IMG/VR virus record: IMGVR_UViG_2541047882_000004
Strand: one strand, 5' to 3'
DNA from: a virus
Lineage: Duplodnaviria > Heunggongvirae > Uroviricota > Caudoviricetes
DNA: 38,061 nucleotides
The translations under genes and the position numbers were made by a program. The notes under the pieces were generated by a model that did no database searches, was not told the origin of the DNA, and was given only the letters and a program-made list of their open reading frames with translations. Within the stretch, counting starts at the first letter, position 1, and each line of letters starts with the position of its first letter. This document shows positions 1 through 18,789 of this stretch, piece by piece.

Positions 1-1314
1 CTAACCCACTGATTTTAATAAGTCTCTTGTGTCACTTTGGTGACCATGGGACATCATTGGGACATAATCTGCCAGCTTCTGATTCAGCATTGCGATCTGT
101 TCTGCATTACTGTCAGTCATCCATGCTCCGTATACATTGAACACCATCTGGGCACTTGCATGGCCCATCTGGCTGGCAATGAAGCTTGGGTTTGCTCCGG
201 CAGATAATGACCAGCACGCATAAGTGTGTCGTGACTGGTATGCTTTCCGGTGCCTGATGCCCGCACGCTTAATGGCTGTTTCCCATGAGTCGCCAATAGA
301 ATCTACCTTGTAGATAAAACCGACCTGTTTGCTTTTTCTAACCACCTGGGGGTTAAATACGAAAGTACATTCATGGTTCACTGTACGTCCATATTCACGT
401 AGTTGAACCTTGATGTGGTGCTGCTTACCCAGTCTTGTCATTTCAGCCTGATTTTTCAGGACACTGATAGCGGGCTGGATAAGATGCACAACCCTGTTTG
501 TACTTGCTTCAGTTTTAGGTAGAGTGAACTCACCGAGTTTCGTATAATTGCGCCTGATAGTAATTGTTCCTGCTTTCAGATCGATATCTTCCCAGGCCAG
601 GGAGACCAGTTCACCATGACGCATTCCTGTGTACACAGCCAATGACCACAGGTTTTTTGTCTGCTGATGCCGGCAAGCATCTATCAGGCGAATAAATTCG
701 TCACGAGTTAGCGGATCTGGCTCTGCCCTGGCTCTTTTAAGAGGCTTAATTCCCTCGAAGGGATTTGCTTCTAAGTAACCGTGATCTGCAGCAAACTGAA
801 ACATTCCAGCGATTGTCGTCATATAATAATTTACAGTAACGACGCTCCGTCCTCTTGCTGGTGATTTGTCTTTCGTTGAATTCTGATATCCGGTCAGCAA
901 ATCTTTCCTGATATACAGTAATTCCTCTTTGGTCACCGTTGACACCAGTCTGCTACCTCCAATTTTCGGAACCACCGTTCTTGCAACGGATTCATAGCGA
1001 TTGAATGCATTTGCAGAGATTTCCATGCGTTTCAGATCCAGCCACTTTTCTTCAAGCTCTTTCACCGTAATTTCTTTTTTATTTACCCCAAAAGCCTTGA
1101 GGTTAGGAGAGTCAGGGAACTGCGCAGCGTAATCAAAGTTTCCTGTACGAATGGCAAAACATACAGATGTCCGCAGCTCTCCGGCGATCTTCCTGTTCTT
1201 GGCAGTGTCAGGGACACCAAGATTTTCCCTGACACGTTTACCTTTAAAATTAAACCAGATGCGTAATGTGCCACCGTGGTTTTCGACGCCTGTTGGATAT
1301 TTGACTTTATCCAT
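1..1314 (-). CDS. int: Tyrosine-type site-specific integrase
   Basis: 437 aa ORF; C-terminal catalytic region with R...HxxR...Y signature context (RHGEL..., SRHTYACW...); stop codon is at window positions 1-3, so the gene is complete. Confidence 0.9.
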   Translation of the reverse strand: MDKVKYPTGVENHGGTLRIWFNFKGKRVRENLGVPDTAKNRKIAGELRTSVCFAIRTGNFDYAAQFPDSPNLKAFGVNKKEITVKELEEKWLDLKRMEISANAFNRYESVARTVVPKIGGSRLVSTVTKEELLYIRKDLLTGYQNSTKDKSPARGRSVVTVNYYMTTIAGMFQFAADHGYLEANPFEGIKPLKRARAEPDPLTRDEFIRLIDACRHQQTKNLWSLAVYTGMRHGELVSLAWEDIDLKAGTITIRRNYTKLGEFTLPKTEASTNRVVHLIQPAISVLKNQAEMTRLGKQHHIKVQLREYGRTVNHECTFVFNPQVVRKSKQVGFIYKVDSIGDSWETAIKRAGIRHRKAYQSRHTYACWSLSAGANPSFIASQMGHASAQMVFNVYGAWMTDSNAEQIAMLNQKLADYVPMMSHGHQSDTRDLLKSVG

Positions 1315-1369: not shown

Positions 1370-1606
1370 TCACCCAGGTTGTTTGTTTTTCATTGAAGCG
1401 ACCCAGGCATCGATTGCTTTTCTGTTATACATACATTCGCTGGAAGGTTTTGGATTACCGTCAGGCGATACGTGAATATACTCTCTTCCTACCATCCAGC
1501 ATTCTTTCCGGGCCCGGAGAATTGTGCCTGGTTTGAGCCCGGTAATTGCGATAAGAACGCTTTCACAAACCCATTCATTGGGAGCCAGTTGAATCACATT
1601 GCCCAT
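1370..1606 (-). CDS. xis: Excisionase-like protein
   Basis: 78 aa ORF immediately upstream of int on the same strand; RBS GAGGTAA upstream; sequence resembles enterobacterial prophage excisionases as I recall them. Confidence 0.6.
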   Translation of the reverse strand: MGNVIQLAPNEWVCESVLIAITGLKPGTILRARKECWMVGREYIHVSPDGNPKPSSECMYNRKAIDAWVASMKNKQPG

Positions 1607-1764: not shown

Positions 1765-2007
1765 TTATTTCCTTTTCATGGCCCGTAATTTTTTCAGATG
1801 AGTTTCCTGTTCTGTTTCTGCCAGAATTTGTCGGTATTCCTGGTGATCGAGCCGTTCAAACAGTTCATTAAAATCGTTTATTTTTACCGACTGTGTTCGC
1901 CCATCCATTCTTCTGTACAACACAGTGTTATTTATGCAGCGAATAATTTTTACCGGGTAACCGGCACTGTCGGTATACAGTTGTCCCTGATTAATCAAAG
2001 CGAACAT
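1765..2007 (-). CDS. Hypothetical phage protein (80 aa)
   Basis: Track ORF 1765..2130 trimmed to the internal Met at 2007, which has an AGGAGA RBS; the upstream part of the track ORF overlaps the intergenic region. Confidence 0.5.
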   Translation of the reverse strand: MFALINQGQLYTDSAGYPVKIIRCINNTVLYRRMDGRTQSVKINDFNELFERLDHQEYRQILAETEQETHLKKLRAMKRK

Positions 2008-2038
2008 TTTTTCTCCTGCTCTCTGAATAGTGAGAACT

Positions 2039-2410
2039 TCAGAGTCGTATGTTTGTAGCGGGTTCAATACTGATAATTTCTGCTGAGATAAGCATCCCGG
2101 CAAGCCAGAGTTCTCCGGACAGGTCTTCATCCTGACATATCAGTTCGCCAATATTAATGGTGGCCATGATATCTGTTCCCCCTGTGCGCTCATCCTCGAC
2201 TTCTTCATAAGGCAGTGTTGCGTACAGGCTTTCAATAGCGCAACTGATAACATCCAGTCCGGTCAGATTGCCGCCGACAGTAACTTCGAATGTTTCGCGG
2301 TATTCCCATAACCCGAAAGTTAATCGAACGGTTTGTTTTGTCATGCGTCCGCATGACGTCAGATTCGGGTCATAGTTCATTATTTGCGGTTGGGCATTAT
2401 GGATGTTCAT
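2039..2410 (-). CDS. Hypothetical phage protein (123 aa)
   Basis: Track ORF with AAGGGA RBS upstream of the ATG at 2410; no family recognised. Confidence 0.55.
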   Translation of the reverse strand: MNIHNAQPQIMNYDPNLTSCGRMTKQTVRLTFGLWEYRETFEVTVGGNLTGLDVISCAIESLYATLPYEEVEDERTGGTDIMATINIGELICQDEDLSGELWLAGMLISAEIISIEPATNIRL

Positions 2411-2450
2411 CTGCTTTTCCCTTAGCCCGGCGACCTGCCGGGCATATAAG

Positions 2451-3278
2451 TTATTTAACCTGGATAAATGGTGTACTGGCGCCGCTGGTCATGTATTGCG
2501 GCAGTGTGCCGTTCCATTTATTGATGGCTTCCAGCTCCATAACACCGGGGTTCTGGCGCAGAGCTTCACCGCGTAAACGAATAGCATCGGCTTCAGCCTG
2601 GGCTTTTGTGCGAATCGCATCTGCCTGTCCGGCAGCTTCCGCGCGCAACATGTTGGCTTCCGCTTCGCGCTGTTTAACTTCCTGCTCGCGCTGCAGTGTT
2701 TTCTGGTTCGCCGTGACTTTGGCATTAATGCTGTCGAGAACGGTTGGCGGATACTCCGGCTTACCCACATATGAGAGGCTCATTACCTGAATACCGATGG
2801 GCGTCATTTCTTCCTGAATGTCTTTAAGAGCAGCATCCAGCAGCTCAGACTTGCCGCCGTCGATAAATTTGTCGGTGGTCATTTTGCTGGCCAGTCGGTT
2901 AAGTGCGTCGGCGATCTTCTGACGCAGGTCGGTGTCGGTAATGTCATCCACGCCTTTGCGGTAGGTCTGAAACACCGTGGTAACTTTGGATGGATCAACT
3001 TTGTAGGCCACGCCAATGTGATAGCCGATGGTTGTACCGTCACTCATCTGGAAACTGAACGGTTCATCGTAGGTCTTCATTTGCTTGAAGGTGGGGAAGA
3101 TGTAAACTTCAGTATTCCAGCCAGTCCAGTAGCGACCAACACCGACCACCTCACCGACGCCTTTGTCGTCGCCCAGTTTATTTACCTTGATGCCAACATT
3201 ACCTGGTTCAACGCGATCGCAACCGACAAGGCCAATAGTCGGCAGAACAATGGCTAAAGCAAAAATAATTTTTTTCAT
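2451..3278 (-). CDS. SPFH/band-7 (stomatin/prohibitin-like) lipoprotein
   Basis: 275 aa; N-terminal signal peptide with lipobox LVGC; central SPFH-like region followed by an Ala/Glu/Gln-rich coiled coil (QREQEVKQREAEANMLRAEAAGQADAIRTKAQAEADAIR); AAGGA RBS. Confidence 0.8.
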   Translation of the reverse strand: MKKIIFALAIVLPTIGLVGCDRVEPGNVGIKVNKLGDDKGVGEVVGVGRYWTGWNTEVYIFPTFKQMKTYDEPFSFQMSDGTTIGYHIGVAYKVDPSKVTTVFQTYRKGVDDITDTDLRQKIADALNRLASKMTTDKFIDGGKSELLDAALKDIQEEMTPIGIQVMSLSYVGKPEYPPTVLDSINAKVTANQKTLQREQEVKQREAEANMLRAEAAGQADAIRTKAQAEADAIRLRGEALRQNPGVMELEAINKWNGTLPQYMTSGASTPFIQVK

Positions 3279-3463
3279 CTTTTATCCTTAGTGAAAGAAA
3301 GACCCTTGTAAATGGCATAAATGCAGGGCGGGGTCAGAAACGCCAGTGCAAAGCCAGAAATAACTGCTATCGTATCCTTCATGGATATAAGGAACGGAAC
3401 AAGTAATCCGTAAATACATGCGATAATTGCCAGTAAAATTACTATTGTGAAATACAGTCTCAT
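3275..3463 (-). CDS. Small hydrophobic membrane protein (62 aa)
   Basis: Two predicted transmembrane helices; its stop overlaps the SPFH start (ATGA), suggesting translational coupling. Confidence 0.5.
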   Translation of the reverse strand: MRLYFTIVILLAIIACIYGLLVPFLISMKDTIAVISGFALAFLTPPCIYAIYKGLSFTKDKR

Positions 3464-3486
3464 TGGTCTGTGGTATCCCGATATTT

Positions 3487-3594
3487 TTAACCGACTGACA
3501 GCACAATAAAGAGAATAATGATTTCAGTTAGTGTCAGTACTGTGGCAAGGATTAAAATCAGTTTTACTCTGTTTAATTCACGGTTGCTTTTCAT
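3487..3594 (-). CDS. Small membrane peptide (35 aa)
   Basis: Hand-translated ORF MKSNRELNRVKLILILATVLTLTEIIILFIVLSVG; single hydrophobic helix; no clear RBS. Confidence 0.2.
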   Translation of the reverse strand: MKSNRELNRVKLILILATVLTLTEIIILFIVLSVG

Positions 3595-3606
3595 ACAAAC
3601 GGTTAG

Positions 3607-3632
3607 TAAAAAACGGAAGAATTATATTCTTC
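3607..3632 (-). terminator. Rho-independent terminator after the 193 aa gene
   Basis: Plus-strand stem GAAGAAT/ATTCTTC (3616-3632) with a 3 nt loop; on the minus strand it is followed by a T tract (plus-strand A run 3608-3613). Confidence 0.5.
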
Positions 3633-3639
3633 TTAATAT

Positions 3640-4221
3640 TTAATGTGTCACTGGCGCTTCTGGCATACTATGAGTATTCAGGTCGTTAATCATTTCATCC
3701 AGAAGGAGTTCAAGCCCTTCGCGCCCCATAGCAGAGACAATGAAACCATTATCAGGATCTGCGATGAGCATTTTTTGATAGAGAAACAGAACTCGCCCCA
3801 TGCCTTCAGCTTCGCCATATTTTTCAATAAATCCCCATTCGACATGGTTTTGCAGGGCAATGCGAAGTGGTCCGGGGTAGATACTCAGGCAACCATGTTT
3901 CCCCTTGTAAATAACTGCGCGATCTGTAGTTCCATTATCGTTAGGGATATCAACAGTGCCGTTCTTGTCTTCCTCTTCATTTATAAATGTCGTCACATAC
4001 AGCCATCGCCACTGAGCAACCTTCATATCGACTGAAAATCGTCCCAGCAACCCTGCATCATCGGCTTCAGCAATACATTGCATGATTCTTAAACCGTGTG
4101 AGTTTGGATAATCGTATTCACCATCATTAAGTCGCTGTACGGCATCAACAAAATCAATGGTTGTATTGCCAATTTTTATGCCATGTGGCGTAACTTCTGG
4201 TCGGAACTCTGAATGATTCAT
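3640..4221 (-). CDS. Hypothetical protein (193 aa), unknown function
   Basis: Track ORF 3640..4296 trimmed to the Met at 4221 (MNHSEF...), preceded by AAGGAG; its ATG overlaps the stop of the upstream 62 aa gene (ATGA). Confidence 0.6.
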   Translation of the reverse strand: MNHSEFRPEVTPHGIKIGNTTIDFVDAVQRLNDGEYDYPNSHGLRIMQCIAEADDAGLLGRFSVDMKVAQWRWLYVTTFINEEEDKNGTVDIPNDNGTTDRAVIYKGKHGCLSIYPGPLRIALQNHVEWGFIEKYGEAEGMGRVLFLYQKMLIADPDNGFIVSAMGREGLELLLDEMINDLNTHSMPEAPVTH

Positions 4222-4974: not shown

Positions 4975-5426
4975 GTATCTCCTGCTGTTGGTTTACCGGT
5001 TAACAGCCACATCGGGTCGCAACCAAGGACATTTGCCAGCGGGATAAGCATACTGATAGTTGGTTCATAGTCTCCGCTCTCCCACTGAATGATGATTTCT
5101 TCATCGAGATCGAGCAGCCTGGCGAGTTCGGCGGTTGTTAAGCCGCAGGCTTCGCGTTGGGTGCGAAGGTTAACCAGCCAGCCTTTAGGGAAGGATTGTT
5201 TTTGTTGTGCAGGAGAAGCCGCAGATAGAGCATATTCATGGATAAATTCCATTACCTCAATGCCCAGTTCCTTTGAGCGAGCACAATCCAGAAGATGGAA
5301 TGTGCGTACAGCACTTAGCAAATTTGCAATATTTAATGCAAAGGAATCAAGTTCTAAGCCTTCAAGCGTAACACAGCCGCAGTTGATAAAATTAGTTGTT
5401 TCTGGAGTTGCTTTTAGTGTCTTCAT
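4965..5426 (-). CDS. DNA-binding protein with a C-terminal XRE-type helix-turn-helix
   Basis: 153 aa; C-terminal segment LTTAELARLLDLDEEIIIQWESGDYEPTISMLIPLANVLGCDPMWLL matches the XRE HTH pattern; N-terminal ~90 aa unrecognised. Confidence 0.65.
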   Translation of the reverse strand: MKTLKATPETTNFINCGCVTLEGLELDSFALNIANLLSAVRTFHLLDCARSKELGIEVMEFIHEYALSAASPAQQKQSFPKGWLVNLRTQREACGLTTAELARLLDLDEEIIIQWESGDYEPTISMLIPLANVLGCDPMWLLTGKPTAGDTCA

Positions 5427-5479: not shown

Positions 5480-5508
5480 ATATTATGCTTTGAGAAATAG
5501 GCTGTCAA
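5480..5508 (-). promoter_or_regulatory. Sigma70-like promoter driving the HTH/123 aa operon
   Basis: Minus strand reads TTGACA, 17 nt spacer, TAATAT; about 50 nt upstream of the ATG at 5426 and downstream of the cI terminator. Confidence 0.45.
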
Positions 5509-5571: not shown

Positions 5572-6261
5572 CTAACCAAATCTGTTTATATTGAATGGTA
5601 CTGATGAGATCACTTTAGACTGGATATAAAGCAGAGCTAACCCCTCTTTTTCGATGCTCCATGGTTGATAATTGGGGTTATCAGATAACACCATGATTTT
5701 GCTTCCAATTTTTTGAAGTCTTTTCACGTAGCATTCTCCATCAAAACAAAATGCATAAATGCCATCGCCATCAAAATAAGTTACTGTCTTATCAAGAAAA
5801 AGAAGGTCGCCAGGTGAGATTGTGGGAGCCATACTGTCTCCTCTGGCGTTACCTATTTCTATATTTTTGAATGCCCGATTTCCAACAAGGCGTCGGGCAT
5901 ATTCAGGATCAAGTTCTATTGAGCGCACTACATCTATCAAGTCACCACGGACATGAGTTCCATCACCGCAACTAAACTCAACATCAAGGACATTAAACAC
6001 GACGCTATCTGTTCTTGTCTGGTGTTTCTCTTGCGAGGAAAAGGTTGGTGAGGAGTCTTCACCTAAGAACCAGGATTGTGGATAACCGCTAATCTCGGAT
6101 AAATGCGCGAGCTTATCACTCCGTGGAAATGTTTTTCCTGTTGTCCAGTACTGCACTGATTGCGCACTCACACCTAACTTGCGGGCCAGTTGAGCCTGAG
6201 TCCATCCTTTTGCTTTCAGCATCGCGGCTATTCGATTTTCCGTGTTTTTGACGTTCTTCAT
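5572..6261 (-). CDS. cI: CI-like prophage repressor (HTH plus S24/LexA-type autopeptidase)
   Basis: N-terminal XRE HTH (WTQAQLARKLGVSAQSVQYW); C-terminal S24 domain with the Ser (GDSMAPTI) and Lys (YVKRL) dyad context. Start set at ATG 6261 (AGGA RBS); the track ORF begins two codons upstream at a TTG. Confidence 0.85.
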   Translation of the reverse strand: MKNVKNTENRIAAMLKAKGWTQAQLARKLGVSAQSVQYWTTGKTFPRSDKLAHLSEISGYPQSWFLGEDSSPTFSSQEKHQTRTDSVVFNVLDVEFSCGDGTHVRGDLIDVVRSIELDPEYARRLVGNRAFKNIEIGNARGDSMAPTISPGDLLFLDKTVTYFDGDGIYAFCFDGECYVKRLQKIGSKIMVLSDNPNYQPWSIEKEGLALLYIQSKVISSVPFNINRFG

Positions 6262-6394
6262 GACCAAATCCTGTGGGTTTCTTTACAAGGATAAATCTTT
6301 ACTTGATTTTAGTGTATTCGATCCTTTTGCAACTTGCATGTTAATTTAAACTTGATGTATTCTTGATTTATAAAGTTAATATTGGTGCTTTGTT
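6262..6394. promoter_or_regulatory. Divergent cI/cro intergenic control region (candidate operators and promoters)
   Basis: 133 bp AT-rich region between divergent regulators; CTTGAT hexamer repeated at 6302, 6351 and 6362; AAGGAT/ATCCTT inverted pair; possible rightward promoter TTGATG-18-TTAATA. Confidence 0.4.
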
Positions 6395-16802: not shown

Positions 16803-17228
16803 ATGTTTGGTATTTTCAAAAAGAAAACCCGCAAGGCCATTACCGAAGTGAAGAAGATGGAGAACCGCGACGCAGTGGAGGCGACCGTCTGGGGTGCGTA
16901 TTCCATTGCATATGCTGACGGCACCTGTGACGCGAAAGAAATCGCAGTACTGGAGAAAACCATTGCAGCACTTCCTGCCTTTGCGCCGTTCTCCGGTGAG
17001 ATTGCACAAATGAGTGCAAATATCCGCGCCCGTTATGAAGCGTCACCTCGTAGTGCGAATGCTCAGGCTTTGCGTGAACTGGCTGATGTGGCAGGAACCG
17101 CCGAAGCGGTTGATGTGCTGTGCCTGTGTCTTGATATTGCTGACCAGGACGGCATTGGTCCGGATGAAGAAGCGCAGCTCAAGAAAATTGCTCAGGCGCT
17201 GCAGTTGCCGCTGGAGCAGTACCTGTGA
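16803..17228 (+). CDS. TerB-like protein
   Basis: 141 aa; paired ADG...D..E...L and IADQDGIGPDEEAQL motifs characteristic of TerB-type domains; AAAAGGAAAAG RBS. Confidence 0.6.
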   Translation: MFGIFKKKTRKAITEVKKMENRDAVEATVWGAYSIAYADGTCDAKEIAVLEKTIAALPAFAPFSGEIAQMSANIRARYEASPRSANAQALRELADVAGTAEAVDVLCLCLDIADQDGIGPDEEAQLKKIAQALQLPLEQYL

Positions 17229-18305: not shown

Positions 18306-18356
18306 ATAGCACCACACAAAAGGCATCTGAGGGTGCTTTTGACGGGGTGTTTTTAT

Positions 18357-18379
18357 GGGCCGCTGGTGGCCCTTTTTTA
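18357..18379 (+). terminator. Intrinsic terminator just upstream of the lysis cassette (possible tR'-like)
   Basis: Stem GGGCC/GGCCC with loop GCTGGT, followed by TTTTTT. Confidence 0.45.
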
Positions 18380-18396
18380 TTTACAGGAGAAAAAGT

Positions 18397-18789
18397 ATGT
18401 CTGAACCCTTGTCCGGTTCCGGCACGGCTGCGGCGCTCGGCGGGGCGACGGTATTCGGGCTGTTTACCGGAACGGATTTCGGGATTGTGTTTGGTGCGTT
18501 CGCCGGGGCGTTATTTGTGGCAACGATGCCGCAGACGCTTTCAGCCTGGCGTGTTGCGGCGCATTTTCTGGTGTCGTTTATCGTGGGCGTACTGGGGGCG
18601 CGCGTGCTGTCAGCCTGGATTGCTGTAAAAACAGGGCATGACGGCACCTCTGCTGATGCGCTGTGTGCTGTGGTGGTGTCTGTATTGTCGGTAAAAGTGC
18701 TGTCCTTTGTGCACAGGCAGGACGTTATATCACTGATGTCCTGTCTGCTCTCCCGCCTGAAGAGTGGAGGAGGCGACAATGTTAAGTAG
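18397..18789 (+). CDS. Putative holin (membrane protein, 131 aa)
   Basis: Track ORF 18355..18789 trimmed to ATG 18397 (AGGAGA RBS); multiple Gly-rich transmembrane segments; first gene of the lysis cassette. Confidence 0.6.
   Translation: MSEPLSGSGTAAALGGATVFGLFTGTDFGIVFGAFAGALFVATMPQTLSAWRVAAHFLVSFIVGVLGARVLSAWIAVKTGHDGTSADALCAVVVSVLSVKVLSFVHRQDVISLMSCLLSRLKSGGGDNVK

Follow-up and report, generated by a model that had tools for sequence, protein, structure and literature searches.

The window analysed here, a 38,061-nucleotide stretch of viral DNA (IMG/VR record IMGVR_UViG_2541047882_000004), is most of a phiP27-like Escherichia coli prophage. Near its left end lie two overlapping minus-strand genes, one for a 275-amino-acid (aa) SPFH/Band-7 lipoprotein and the other for a 62-aa membrane protein with two helices, here called the partner. 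On the evidence of gene order, protein profiles and natural fusions, the two form one conserved unit, PHROG 200 plus PHROG 1130. The 2.4 kb surrounding the SPFH locus match phage phiP27 at 96.5% identity and E. coli strain 08-00022 at 100%. The features of the locus are the following.

2451..3278, minus strand: SPFH/Band-7 (prohibitin/HflKC-like) lipoprotein of 275 aa, from Pfam, PHROG, AlphaFold2, Foldseek and the ratio of nonsynonymous to synonymous substitution rates (dN/dS)
3219..3278, minus strand: lipoprotein signal peptide and lipobox, residues 1-20, MKKIIFALAIVLPTIGLVGC, read from the sequence
3275..3278, minus strand: ATGA overlap of the partner stop codon (TGA) and the SPFH start codon (ATG), read from the sequence
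3275..3463, minus strand: partner protein of 62 aa with two transmembrane helices, from phrog_1130, homologous clusters, a fusion-profile match and dN/dS
3487..3594, minus strand: hydrophobic open reading frame (ORF) of 35 aa, a doubtful gene with no family match and a weak coding signal
2425..2443, minus strand: GC-rich hairpin GCCCGGC-5 nt-GCCGGGC (-17.1 kcal/mol, z = -2.55)

The SPFH lipoprotein and its two-helix partner

The preliminary description of this DNA had taken the larger gene for an SPFH lipoprotein and had pointed to homology and structure searches as the means of checking it; those searches bear it out. The protein matches Pfam Band_7 (PF01145) over residues 22-208 with E = 8.8e-31 (107.7 bits against a gathering cut-off of 23.6), and the two adjacent, co-directional genes match phrog_200 (E = 2.4e-114) and phrog_1130 (E = 2.5e-23), respectively. 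An AlphaFold2 model of the SPFH protein, built on a 78-sequence alignment (predicted local distance difference test score, pLDDT, 83), has the full SPFH architecture: SPFH1 and SPFH2 domains, a 65-residue helix (178-242) and a short second helix. The C-terminal tail is conserved as KW[ND]G.LP...PF[IV]. In a Foldseek search, prohibitin (8rrh) was the top full-length match (1.4e-14), and HflK/C (7vhq), erlin, stomatin, flotillin and QmcA-YbbJ were also retrieved. Across 80 related loci, dN/dS of the SPFH gene is about 0.04; by this measure the family is under strong purifying selection in prophages.

The N-terminus is laid out as MKK-IIFALAIVLPTIG-LVGC, that is, a basic n-region, a hydrophobic core and the lipobox L-V-G-C, which matches the pattern [LVI][ASTVI][GAS]C. 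It reads MKKIIFALAIVLPTIGLVGC|D, so that Cys20 is followed by Asp21 at position +2 and by Arg at +3, and the first SPFH strand starts just 3 or 4 residues past Cys20. In E. coli lipoproteins, Asp at +2 is the signal for retention in the inner membrane through avoidance of the Lol pathway. Cys20 is invariant in a hand-picked alignment of 40 sequences and present in at least 90% of the 78-sequence alignment. An exhaustive profile search collected 229 SPFH clusters (50% identity) at E ≤ 1e-30, with 142 full-length representatives, and 117 of these carry a lipobox-like motif.

Clear orthology to a host housekeeping SPFH protein, which the preliminary description had named as a possible outcome pointing to simple gene capture, was not what we found. 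The HflK and HflC equivalog models went unmatched (TIGR01933, 23.1 bits against a cut-off of 159.4; TIGR01932, 24.9 bits against 134.4), the best match in a sequence search of the PDB was HflK with E = 2.8e-4, and the protein has no close homologue in the E. coli core genome. Judged by these scores, it is not an HflK or HflC orthologue and resembles the E. coli proteins only remotely. GenBank records label it variously as 'serine protease', 'lipoprotein' and 'SPFH domain protein'; the 'putative serine protease' label in several entries is without sequence support. The hairpin at 2425-2443 lies between the SPFH stop codon and the start codon of the next gene (DUF5406). Lacking a U-tract on the coding strand, it does not qualify as a canonical terminator; a role in RNA stability or processing is conceivable.

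The partner has homologues in 35 protein clusters across Enterobacteriaceae, and over the same 80 loci its dN/dS is about 0.15, compared with 0.04 for the SPFH gene. By these comparative measures the 62-aa ORF is a real gene under purifying selection. From its two hydrophobic helices and basic C-terminus an N-in/C-in topology is predicted; the homologue in phage Pylas was independently annotated as '2 TMDs N in C in', in agreement with this prediction. At its periplasmic end, helix 1 carries a conserved P-x-[LM]-[IVL]-S motif, and among 15 diverse partners P23 and S27 are invariant. The ATGA overlap, with AAGGA upstream of the SPFH start codon, indicates that partner and SPFH genes are translationally coupled, as had been proposed from the reading frames.

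Profile searches set this companion apart from known ones. None of the 15 diverse partners matched NfeD (PF01957), even up to E = 1, and the partner has no match to any Pfam family or to any holin family. Because it lacks both an NfeD domain and a Pfam family, it differs in kind from the companion encoded in stomatin-type bacterial SPFH operons. The partner gene is missing from the annotation of the phiP27 records NC_003356 and AJ298298 (L003) and of the RCS47 record NC_042128 (L002 4775-5011), and one database cluster of the partner (P0127) is named 'glycosyltransferase family 4 protein, partial', evidently a mislabelling.

A possible third member, the 35-aa membrane peptide suggested in the preliminary description, did not hold up. 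The ORF is missing from 30 of the 80 close loci; in the 50 related loci where it occurs it is always open, over about 24 substitutions, which is expected by chance with P of about 0.24. Its dN/dS is about 0.69, and its variable sites are spread over the codon positions as 10/4/10. Neither a family match nor a Shine-Dalgarno sequence was found for it, and it is not present in P88, RCS47 or the distant loci whose upstream ORFs were inspected. Given this near-neutral evolution, the missing ribosome-binding site, the lack of a family and the patchy presence, we rejected it as a component of the unit.

Just upstream of this ORF, at 3596-3640 (minus strand) and between it and the gene for a 218-aa protein, lies an AT-rich hairpin, GAAGAAT-ATA-ATTCTTC, which has a perfect TATAAT within it and is followed by CGTTTTTT. 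We considered this segment as a terminator or promoter of an accessory gene of the moron type and rejected it, since the fold is weak and not significant (-4.9 kcal/mol, z = -1.1) and a 19-nt spacer separates the TATAAT from the sole -35-like hexamer.

Pairing, natural fusions and distribution

The expectation that the SPFH protein would be partnered by a small membrane protein proved correct well beyond the window, since the pair is conserved across phage families. We analysed gene order at 245 loci. About 23 of about 25 clusters of full-length SPFH proteins (70% identity) come with a partner, about 16 of them recognized by profile and the others by eye through a two-helix ORF with P-x-L-[LIV]-S. 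An ORF homologous to the partner, with two helices and in most cases a 4-nt overlap, immediately precedes the SPFH gene in the P2-like phage P88, the P1-like RCS47 and the N4-like Pylas, and likewise in a 168-kb lytic phage contig, in roseophage DSS3_MAL1, in a widespread Salmonella prophage and at chromosomal loci of Luteibacter and of a metagenome-assembled genome of Xanthomonadaceae. The 4-nt overlap is identical in P88, Pylas and three further loci (L087, L089 and L247).

The two domains also occur in a single polypeptide, in 13 of the 142 full-length representatives, and in 12 of these the partner domain is N-terminal (fused forms P0160, P0164, P0167, P0178, P0179, P0181, P0182, P0199, P0200, P0214, P0237 and P0255; also L084 8001-9053). 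The N-terminal fusions keep the lipobox and read, in order, helix 1, loop, helix 2, basic linker, signal-like helix, lipobox Cys and SPFH. This order of helices places the SPFH domain outside the cytoplasm, and fusion to a membrane hairpin supports an inner-membrane location of the SPFH protein. One such fusion, P0361, is in frame at the DNA level and lies among housekeeping genes. When the N-terminal extensions of 18 fused SPFH proteins were made into a profile, it matched the 62-aa protein of the window (57 bits, E = 7e-14) and no other reading frame of the window. In the reverse comparison, phrog_1130 was matched by 14 of 15 partner sequences, fused N-terminal extensions included.

If signal peptidase II cuts at the lipobox of the fused forms, these would be lipoprotein precursors with an unusually long, three-helix leader, processed at a site preceded by two additional membrane helices. 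The lipoprotein may also be translated on its own, from an internal MKK start. One protein, P0169 (344 aa), was counted separately: it has a partner-like domain C-terminal to SPFH, and its junction contains Trp codons. It may be no true fusion but a pair of neighbouring genes in the reverse order, joined by readthrough of a TGA under an alternative genetic code.

The SPFH family was found in 423 of 50,697 phage records. Its carriers include lambdoid and Stx-converting phages, P1-like, P2-like and N4-like phages, Bruynoghevirus, phiCbK-like and crAss-like phages, Lak megaphages, jumbo phages and Halorubrum tailed viruses, together with GAP31, MM7 and others with genome sizes of about 142-148 kb and about 84 kb, which we take to be rV5-like and Felix-O1-like. 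Virulent carriers are common, N4-like phages and Bruynoghevirus being examples, and the unit also occurs in a roseophage and in phiCbK-like and crAss-like phages. RB43, 44RR and Aeh1 (PMC1524935) were absent from the 40 listed relatives and the named organism groups of this SPFH subfamily.

In E. coli, a nucleotide search with a 1,013-bp query matched 571 of 5,426 complete genomes. Of the 660 matching places, 241 are on plasmids; the plasmid records listed, 73-108 kb in size, show the same identity to the query as P1-like phage records do, and we therefore regard them as P1-like phage-plasmids. In 218 genomes the match covers no less than 80% of the query, and hence the partner allele of the window, and most of the other 353 matched in part, typically over the mature SPFH segment. 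Within E. coli the locus is a mosaic. DNA for the mature SPFH protein is about 86-92% identical across P1-like, P2-like and phiP27-like backbones, and similarity ends at about positions 2484 and 3230, beyond which the signal peptide and the partner are much more divergent and occur as very different alleles. Between the window and RCS47, the SPFH proteins are 92% identical and the partners 38% over 45 aligned residues. In our reading, the unit is a mobile accessory module.

Operon position, proposed function and alternatives

The context of the pair in the window is set by the following features.

1-1314, minus strand: int, from the ORF list and the phiP27 annotation
1370-1606, minus strand: xis, from the same two sources
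5480..5508, minus strand: TTGACA-17-TAATAT, the best sigma-70-like promoter of the region in the promoter and terminator scan
5572-6267: cI-like repressor gene (HTH and Peptidase_S24 domains)
18355-18789: holin gene

The unit thus lies where the preliminary description had put it, in a prophage accessory arm in the neighbourhood of the integration module. From about position 5426 down to 1 there are only minus-strand genes, closely spaced: a helix-turn-helix protein, three small proteins and the 218-aa protein (phrog_1515), the 35-aa and 62-aa ORFs, the 275-aa ORF, the DUF5406 and DUF4222 proteins, xis and int. The promoter-like site at 5480-5508 comes just after the cI-like repressor gene with its terminator-like hairpin; a leftward early operon that would contain the unit probably starts there, and the unit would then correspond in position to the accessory 'ea' genes of lambda. 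P88 has the pair flanked by cox and the replication gene A, all on one strand. In RCS47 it stands where P1 has tciABC, with upl on one side and the tRNA/ban genes on the other; in P1 the C1-operated ban promoter is upstream of this slot. The Salmonella prophage has it between the genes for a single-stranded DNA-binding protein and a DNA polymerase, downstream of a divergent repressor pair. In four unrelated temperate backbones the unit is thus placed, co-directionally, within what look like repressor-controlled early operons. Among virulent carriers, at least two groups have it in early or middle regions.

The scan around 2451-3640 found no promoter or terminator flanking the unit beyond the chance rate, with fewer promoter-like sites than in shuffled sequence. 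Early-operon position, presence in virulent phages and the lack of flanking signals together point to an early lytic function rather than to lysogenic conversion. The latter, one of the roles first suggested for the locus, is disfavoured on the same grounds.

We favour, at a probability of roughly 0.55, the reading that the two genes make one membrane machine, a cage resembling those of HflKC and prohibitin that would face the periplasm from the inner membrane. Membrane caging is the current view of what SPFH scaffolds do, prohibitin, HflK/C, stomatin and flotillin among them, and the phage protein has its best structural matches in the prohibitin, HflK/C and erlin complexes, which form cages and are all oriented to the non-cytoplasmic side. 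The 275-aa protein would be exported, lipid-modified at Cys20 and kept on the periplasmic face of the inner membrane, where we infer it to reside. Through its long coiled coil and C-terminal tail it would oligomerise, in the manner of HflK/C, prohibitin and erlin, into a dome enclosing an area of membrane. The partner would be made in step with it through the overlapping codons, in fixed proportion, or as part of one precursor in the fused forms, and would supply the membrane-spanning part that a lipid anchor lacks, namely a hairpin of two helices, with its conserved loop (P-x-L-I-S) on the periplasmic side and beneath the SPFH1 domains. The unit is probably expressed early in lytic growth and would probably remodel the inner membrane for the phage.

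As the client of such a cage, the host protease FtsH is our first, tentative guess, by analogy, because FtsH is a recurrent client of SPFH cages that face the periplasm or the intermembrane space; it is the usual client of HflKC, QmcA and prohibitin (PMC2636767; PDB 7wi3, 9cz2). Capture of FtsH would alter the turnover of phage regulators and of membrane proteins. A bolder version, in which phages use a prohibitin-like cage and its partner early to seize a patch of inner membrane, caging FtsH or shutting out rival phages, seems to us unlikely as a whole. If it were true, it would amount to a widespread, unstudied layer of phage-host and phage-phage conflict.

Several observations weigh against this reading. 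One lytic phage contig (L250) has the SPFH gene without a partner, with a gene for a periplasmic binding protein upstream instead, and no partner was seen at two further loci (L101 and L151). A fixed structural role would lead one to expect tighter co-conservation than the 38% identity of the partner beside the 92% of SPFH in the comparison with RCS47. Asp at +2 followed by Arg at +3 is not a proven strong signal for inner-membrane retention. The arrangement GTGACA-19 nt-TATAAT upstream of the 35-aa ORF is a possible internal promoter active in lysogens, albeit with a poor spacer. No sequence feature ties the unit to FtsH specifically, and our literature search found no experimental study of the unit.

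The closest structural parallels lie in the HflK/HflC-FtsH complex (PDB 7vhp, 7wi3, 9cz2) and the prohibitins. With HflK/HflC the phage protein shares the succession of SPFH1, SPFH2, coiled coil and C-terminal tail, a full-length Foldseek match of about 1e-14 and, by prediction, a periplasm-facing orientation. However, it is a single protein and not a K/C pair, is anchored by lipid and not by a helix, has a separate two-helix partner and scores below the HflK/HflC cut-offs, and its link to FtsH is a guess. With prohibitins (PHB1/2, 8rrh, and the prokaryotic p-prohibitins, SPFH4 of Hinderhofer et al. 2009) it shares the top structural match and a predicted non-cytoplasmic orientation; NCBI names its relatives 'prohibitin family protein', one phage genome paper assigns its homologue to the SPFH_prohibitin domain family, and, as in prohibitins, there is no NfeD partner (PMC2636767). 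Unlike the SPFH4 proteins as described, it is a phage-carried lipoprotein with a dedicated small partner of a type undescribed for that group, and no companion had been reported for prohibitin-type SPFH proteins (PMC2636767).

SPFH-NfeD operons (QmcA-YbbJ, PDB 8z5g) resemble the unit in being two-gene operons with a small membrane partner upstream, translational coupling and natural fusions. The phage partner differs in its size of about 60 aa, its two helices and the absence of an NfeD domain or any Pfam match, and the phage SPFH protein is predicted to face the periplasm whereas QmcA faces the cytoplasm. To judge from these comparisons, SPFH proteins have in the partner a companion of a new kind, distinct from NfeD.

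The SPFH gene is already annotated in many records, and phage genome papers mention it with speculation about HflKC, FtsH or lysogeny or call its role unclear (PMC8540360, PMC10269572, PMC4936722, PMC13239085). We found annotation and speculation only in the literature, with no functional study and no mention of the partner. New, as far as we found, are the two-component nature of the system, the fusions, the breadth of phages and the early-operon position. When the survey of 2009 appeared (PMC2636767), no member of the prokaryotic prohibitin-like branch had been studied, and we found none in later literature. A vague annotation thus becomes a defined two-gene system that can be cloned from an E. 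coli prophage for direct tests, and, if the bolder version above is true, it would be the first tractable model for prokaryotic prohibitins.

Among the alternatives, the unit could be a superinfection-exclusion or anti-phage device that blocks DNA entry of incoming phages at the inner membrane or sequesters an inner-membrane protein that they need, which we regard as a minority possibility. T4 Imm, HK97 gp15 and the lipoprotein Ltp of TP-J34 are phage exclusion proteins that act at the cytoplasmic membrane, and a lipoprotein on the outer face of that membrane together with a small membrane protein is a typical make-up for exclusion. The analogy is a functional one, with small, accessory, often early membrane proteins or lipoproteins on both sides; the three proteins are not known to have an SPFH domain or to be related to the unit in sequence or fold. 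The unit moves among P1-, P2- and lambdoid backbones, and its presence among close relatives is patchy and accessory (PMC8540360). In RCS47-type P1 phages it fills the slot of tciA-tciB-tciC in the C1-controlled ban operon, TerB-like genes annotated 'tellurite or colicin resistance' whose products are unrelated to the SPFH pair. Diversification of the partner and signal peptide beside a mature SPFH protein that stays at least 92% identical is what a specificity element would show, early expression is compatible with exclusion by virulent phages as well, and in PhiSH19 a neighbour of an SPFH gene that may belong to this subfamily is annotated 'superinfection exclusion protein'. However, neither the SPFH protein, the partner, the 35-aa ORF nor either flanking gene matched PADLOC-DB 2.0.0, we found no paper linking SPFH proteins to phage defence, lysogens would go unprotected if the unit is repressed in them, and copies occur in chromosomal, housekeeping contexts.

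The same chromosomal copies among housekeeping genes are what could be said for simple capture of a host SPFH gene (HflK/HflC, QmcA or YqiK) with no phage-specific role. This explanation is largely refuted, and we give it next to no weight: the HflK/HflC models score 23-25 bits against cut-offs of 134-159, E. coli has no close core homologue, the family is large, phage-rich and under strong purifying selection in prophages, and carriage by many virulent phages argues against capture. A lysogenic-conversion moron, with its own promoter and a gain in host fitness (tolerance of membrane, aminoglycoside or oxidative stress, as for HflKC), we consider very unlikely. It would fit the accessory arm beside int and xis, the phrog_1130 category ('moron, auxiliary metabolic gene and host takeover'), the perfect TATAAT upstream of the 35-aa ORF, the carriage of the gene by a tenth or so of complete E. 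coli genomes (the 571 of 5,426 above) and a reported contribution of HflKC to stress tolerance (PMC10434171). However, no convincing promoter or terminator flanks the unit, which runs co-directionally within apparent repressor-controlled early operons in four temperate backbones, and many carriers are virulent and never lysogenic. Distinctly unlikely, too, is control of lysis timing or membrane integrity, by which the unit would stabilise the energised inner membrane, hold holin-type proteins or counter depolarising abortive-infection effectors. The partner is like class II holins in size and shape, early expression and occurrence across all phage lifestyles would suit such a role, and SPFH proteins have been linked to membrane-stress systems such as PspA with YdjI/SamI (PMC8581546). 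Against this, the unit is far from the lysis cassette of the window (holin at 18355-18789), the annotated neighbours at the other loci examined include no lysis genes, and the partner has no holin family match.

Neighbouring genes and minor observations

In the contig with an SPFH gene but no partner (L250; 2633-5271 and 6084-7004), the gene before SPFH belongs to the NMT1_3 family, and MotA/ExbB-like and trypsin-PDZ (HtrA-like) genes lie nearby. From these family assignments, the neighbourhood may be a cluster of envelope-directed phage genes.

In the window, the DUF4222 ORF (1765-2130, minus strand) and the DUF5406 ORF (2039-2410, minus strand) downstream of the unit share 92 nt as listed; the real start of the downstream gene is probably internal. 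On the other strand, a protein with a TerB domain (PF05099, E = 1.7e-7) is encoded at 16803-17228, about 1.1 kb upstream of the holin gene. The prophage of the window thus holds both types of cargo, a TerB-like gene and an SPFH unit.

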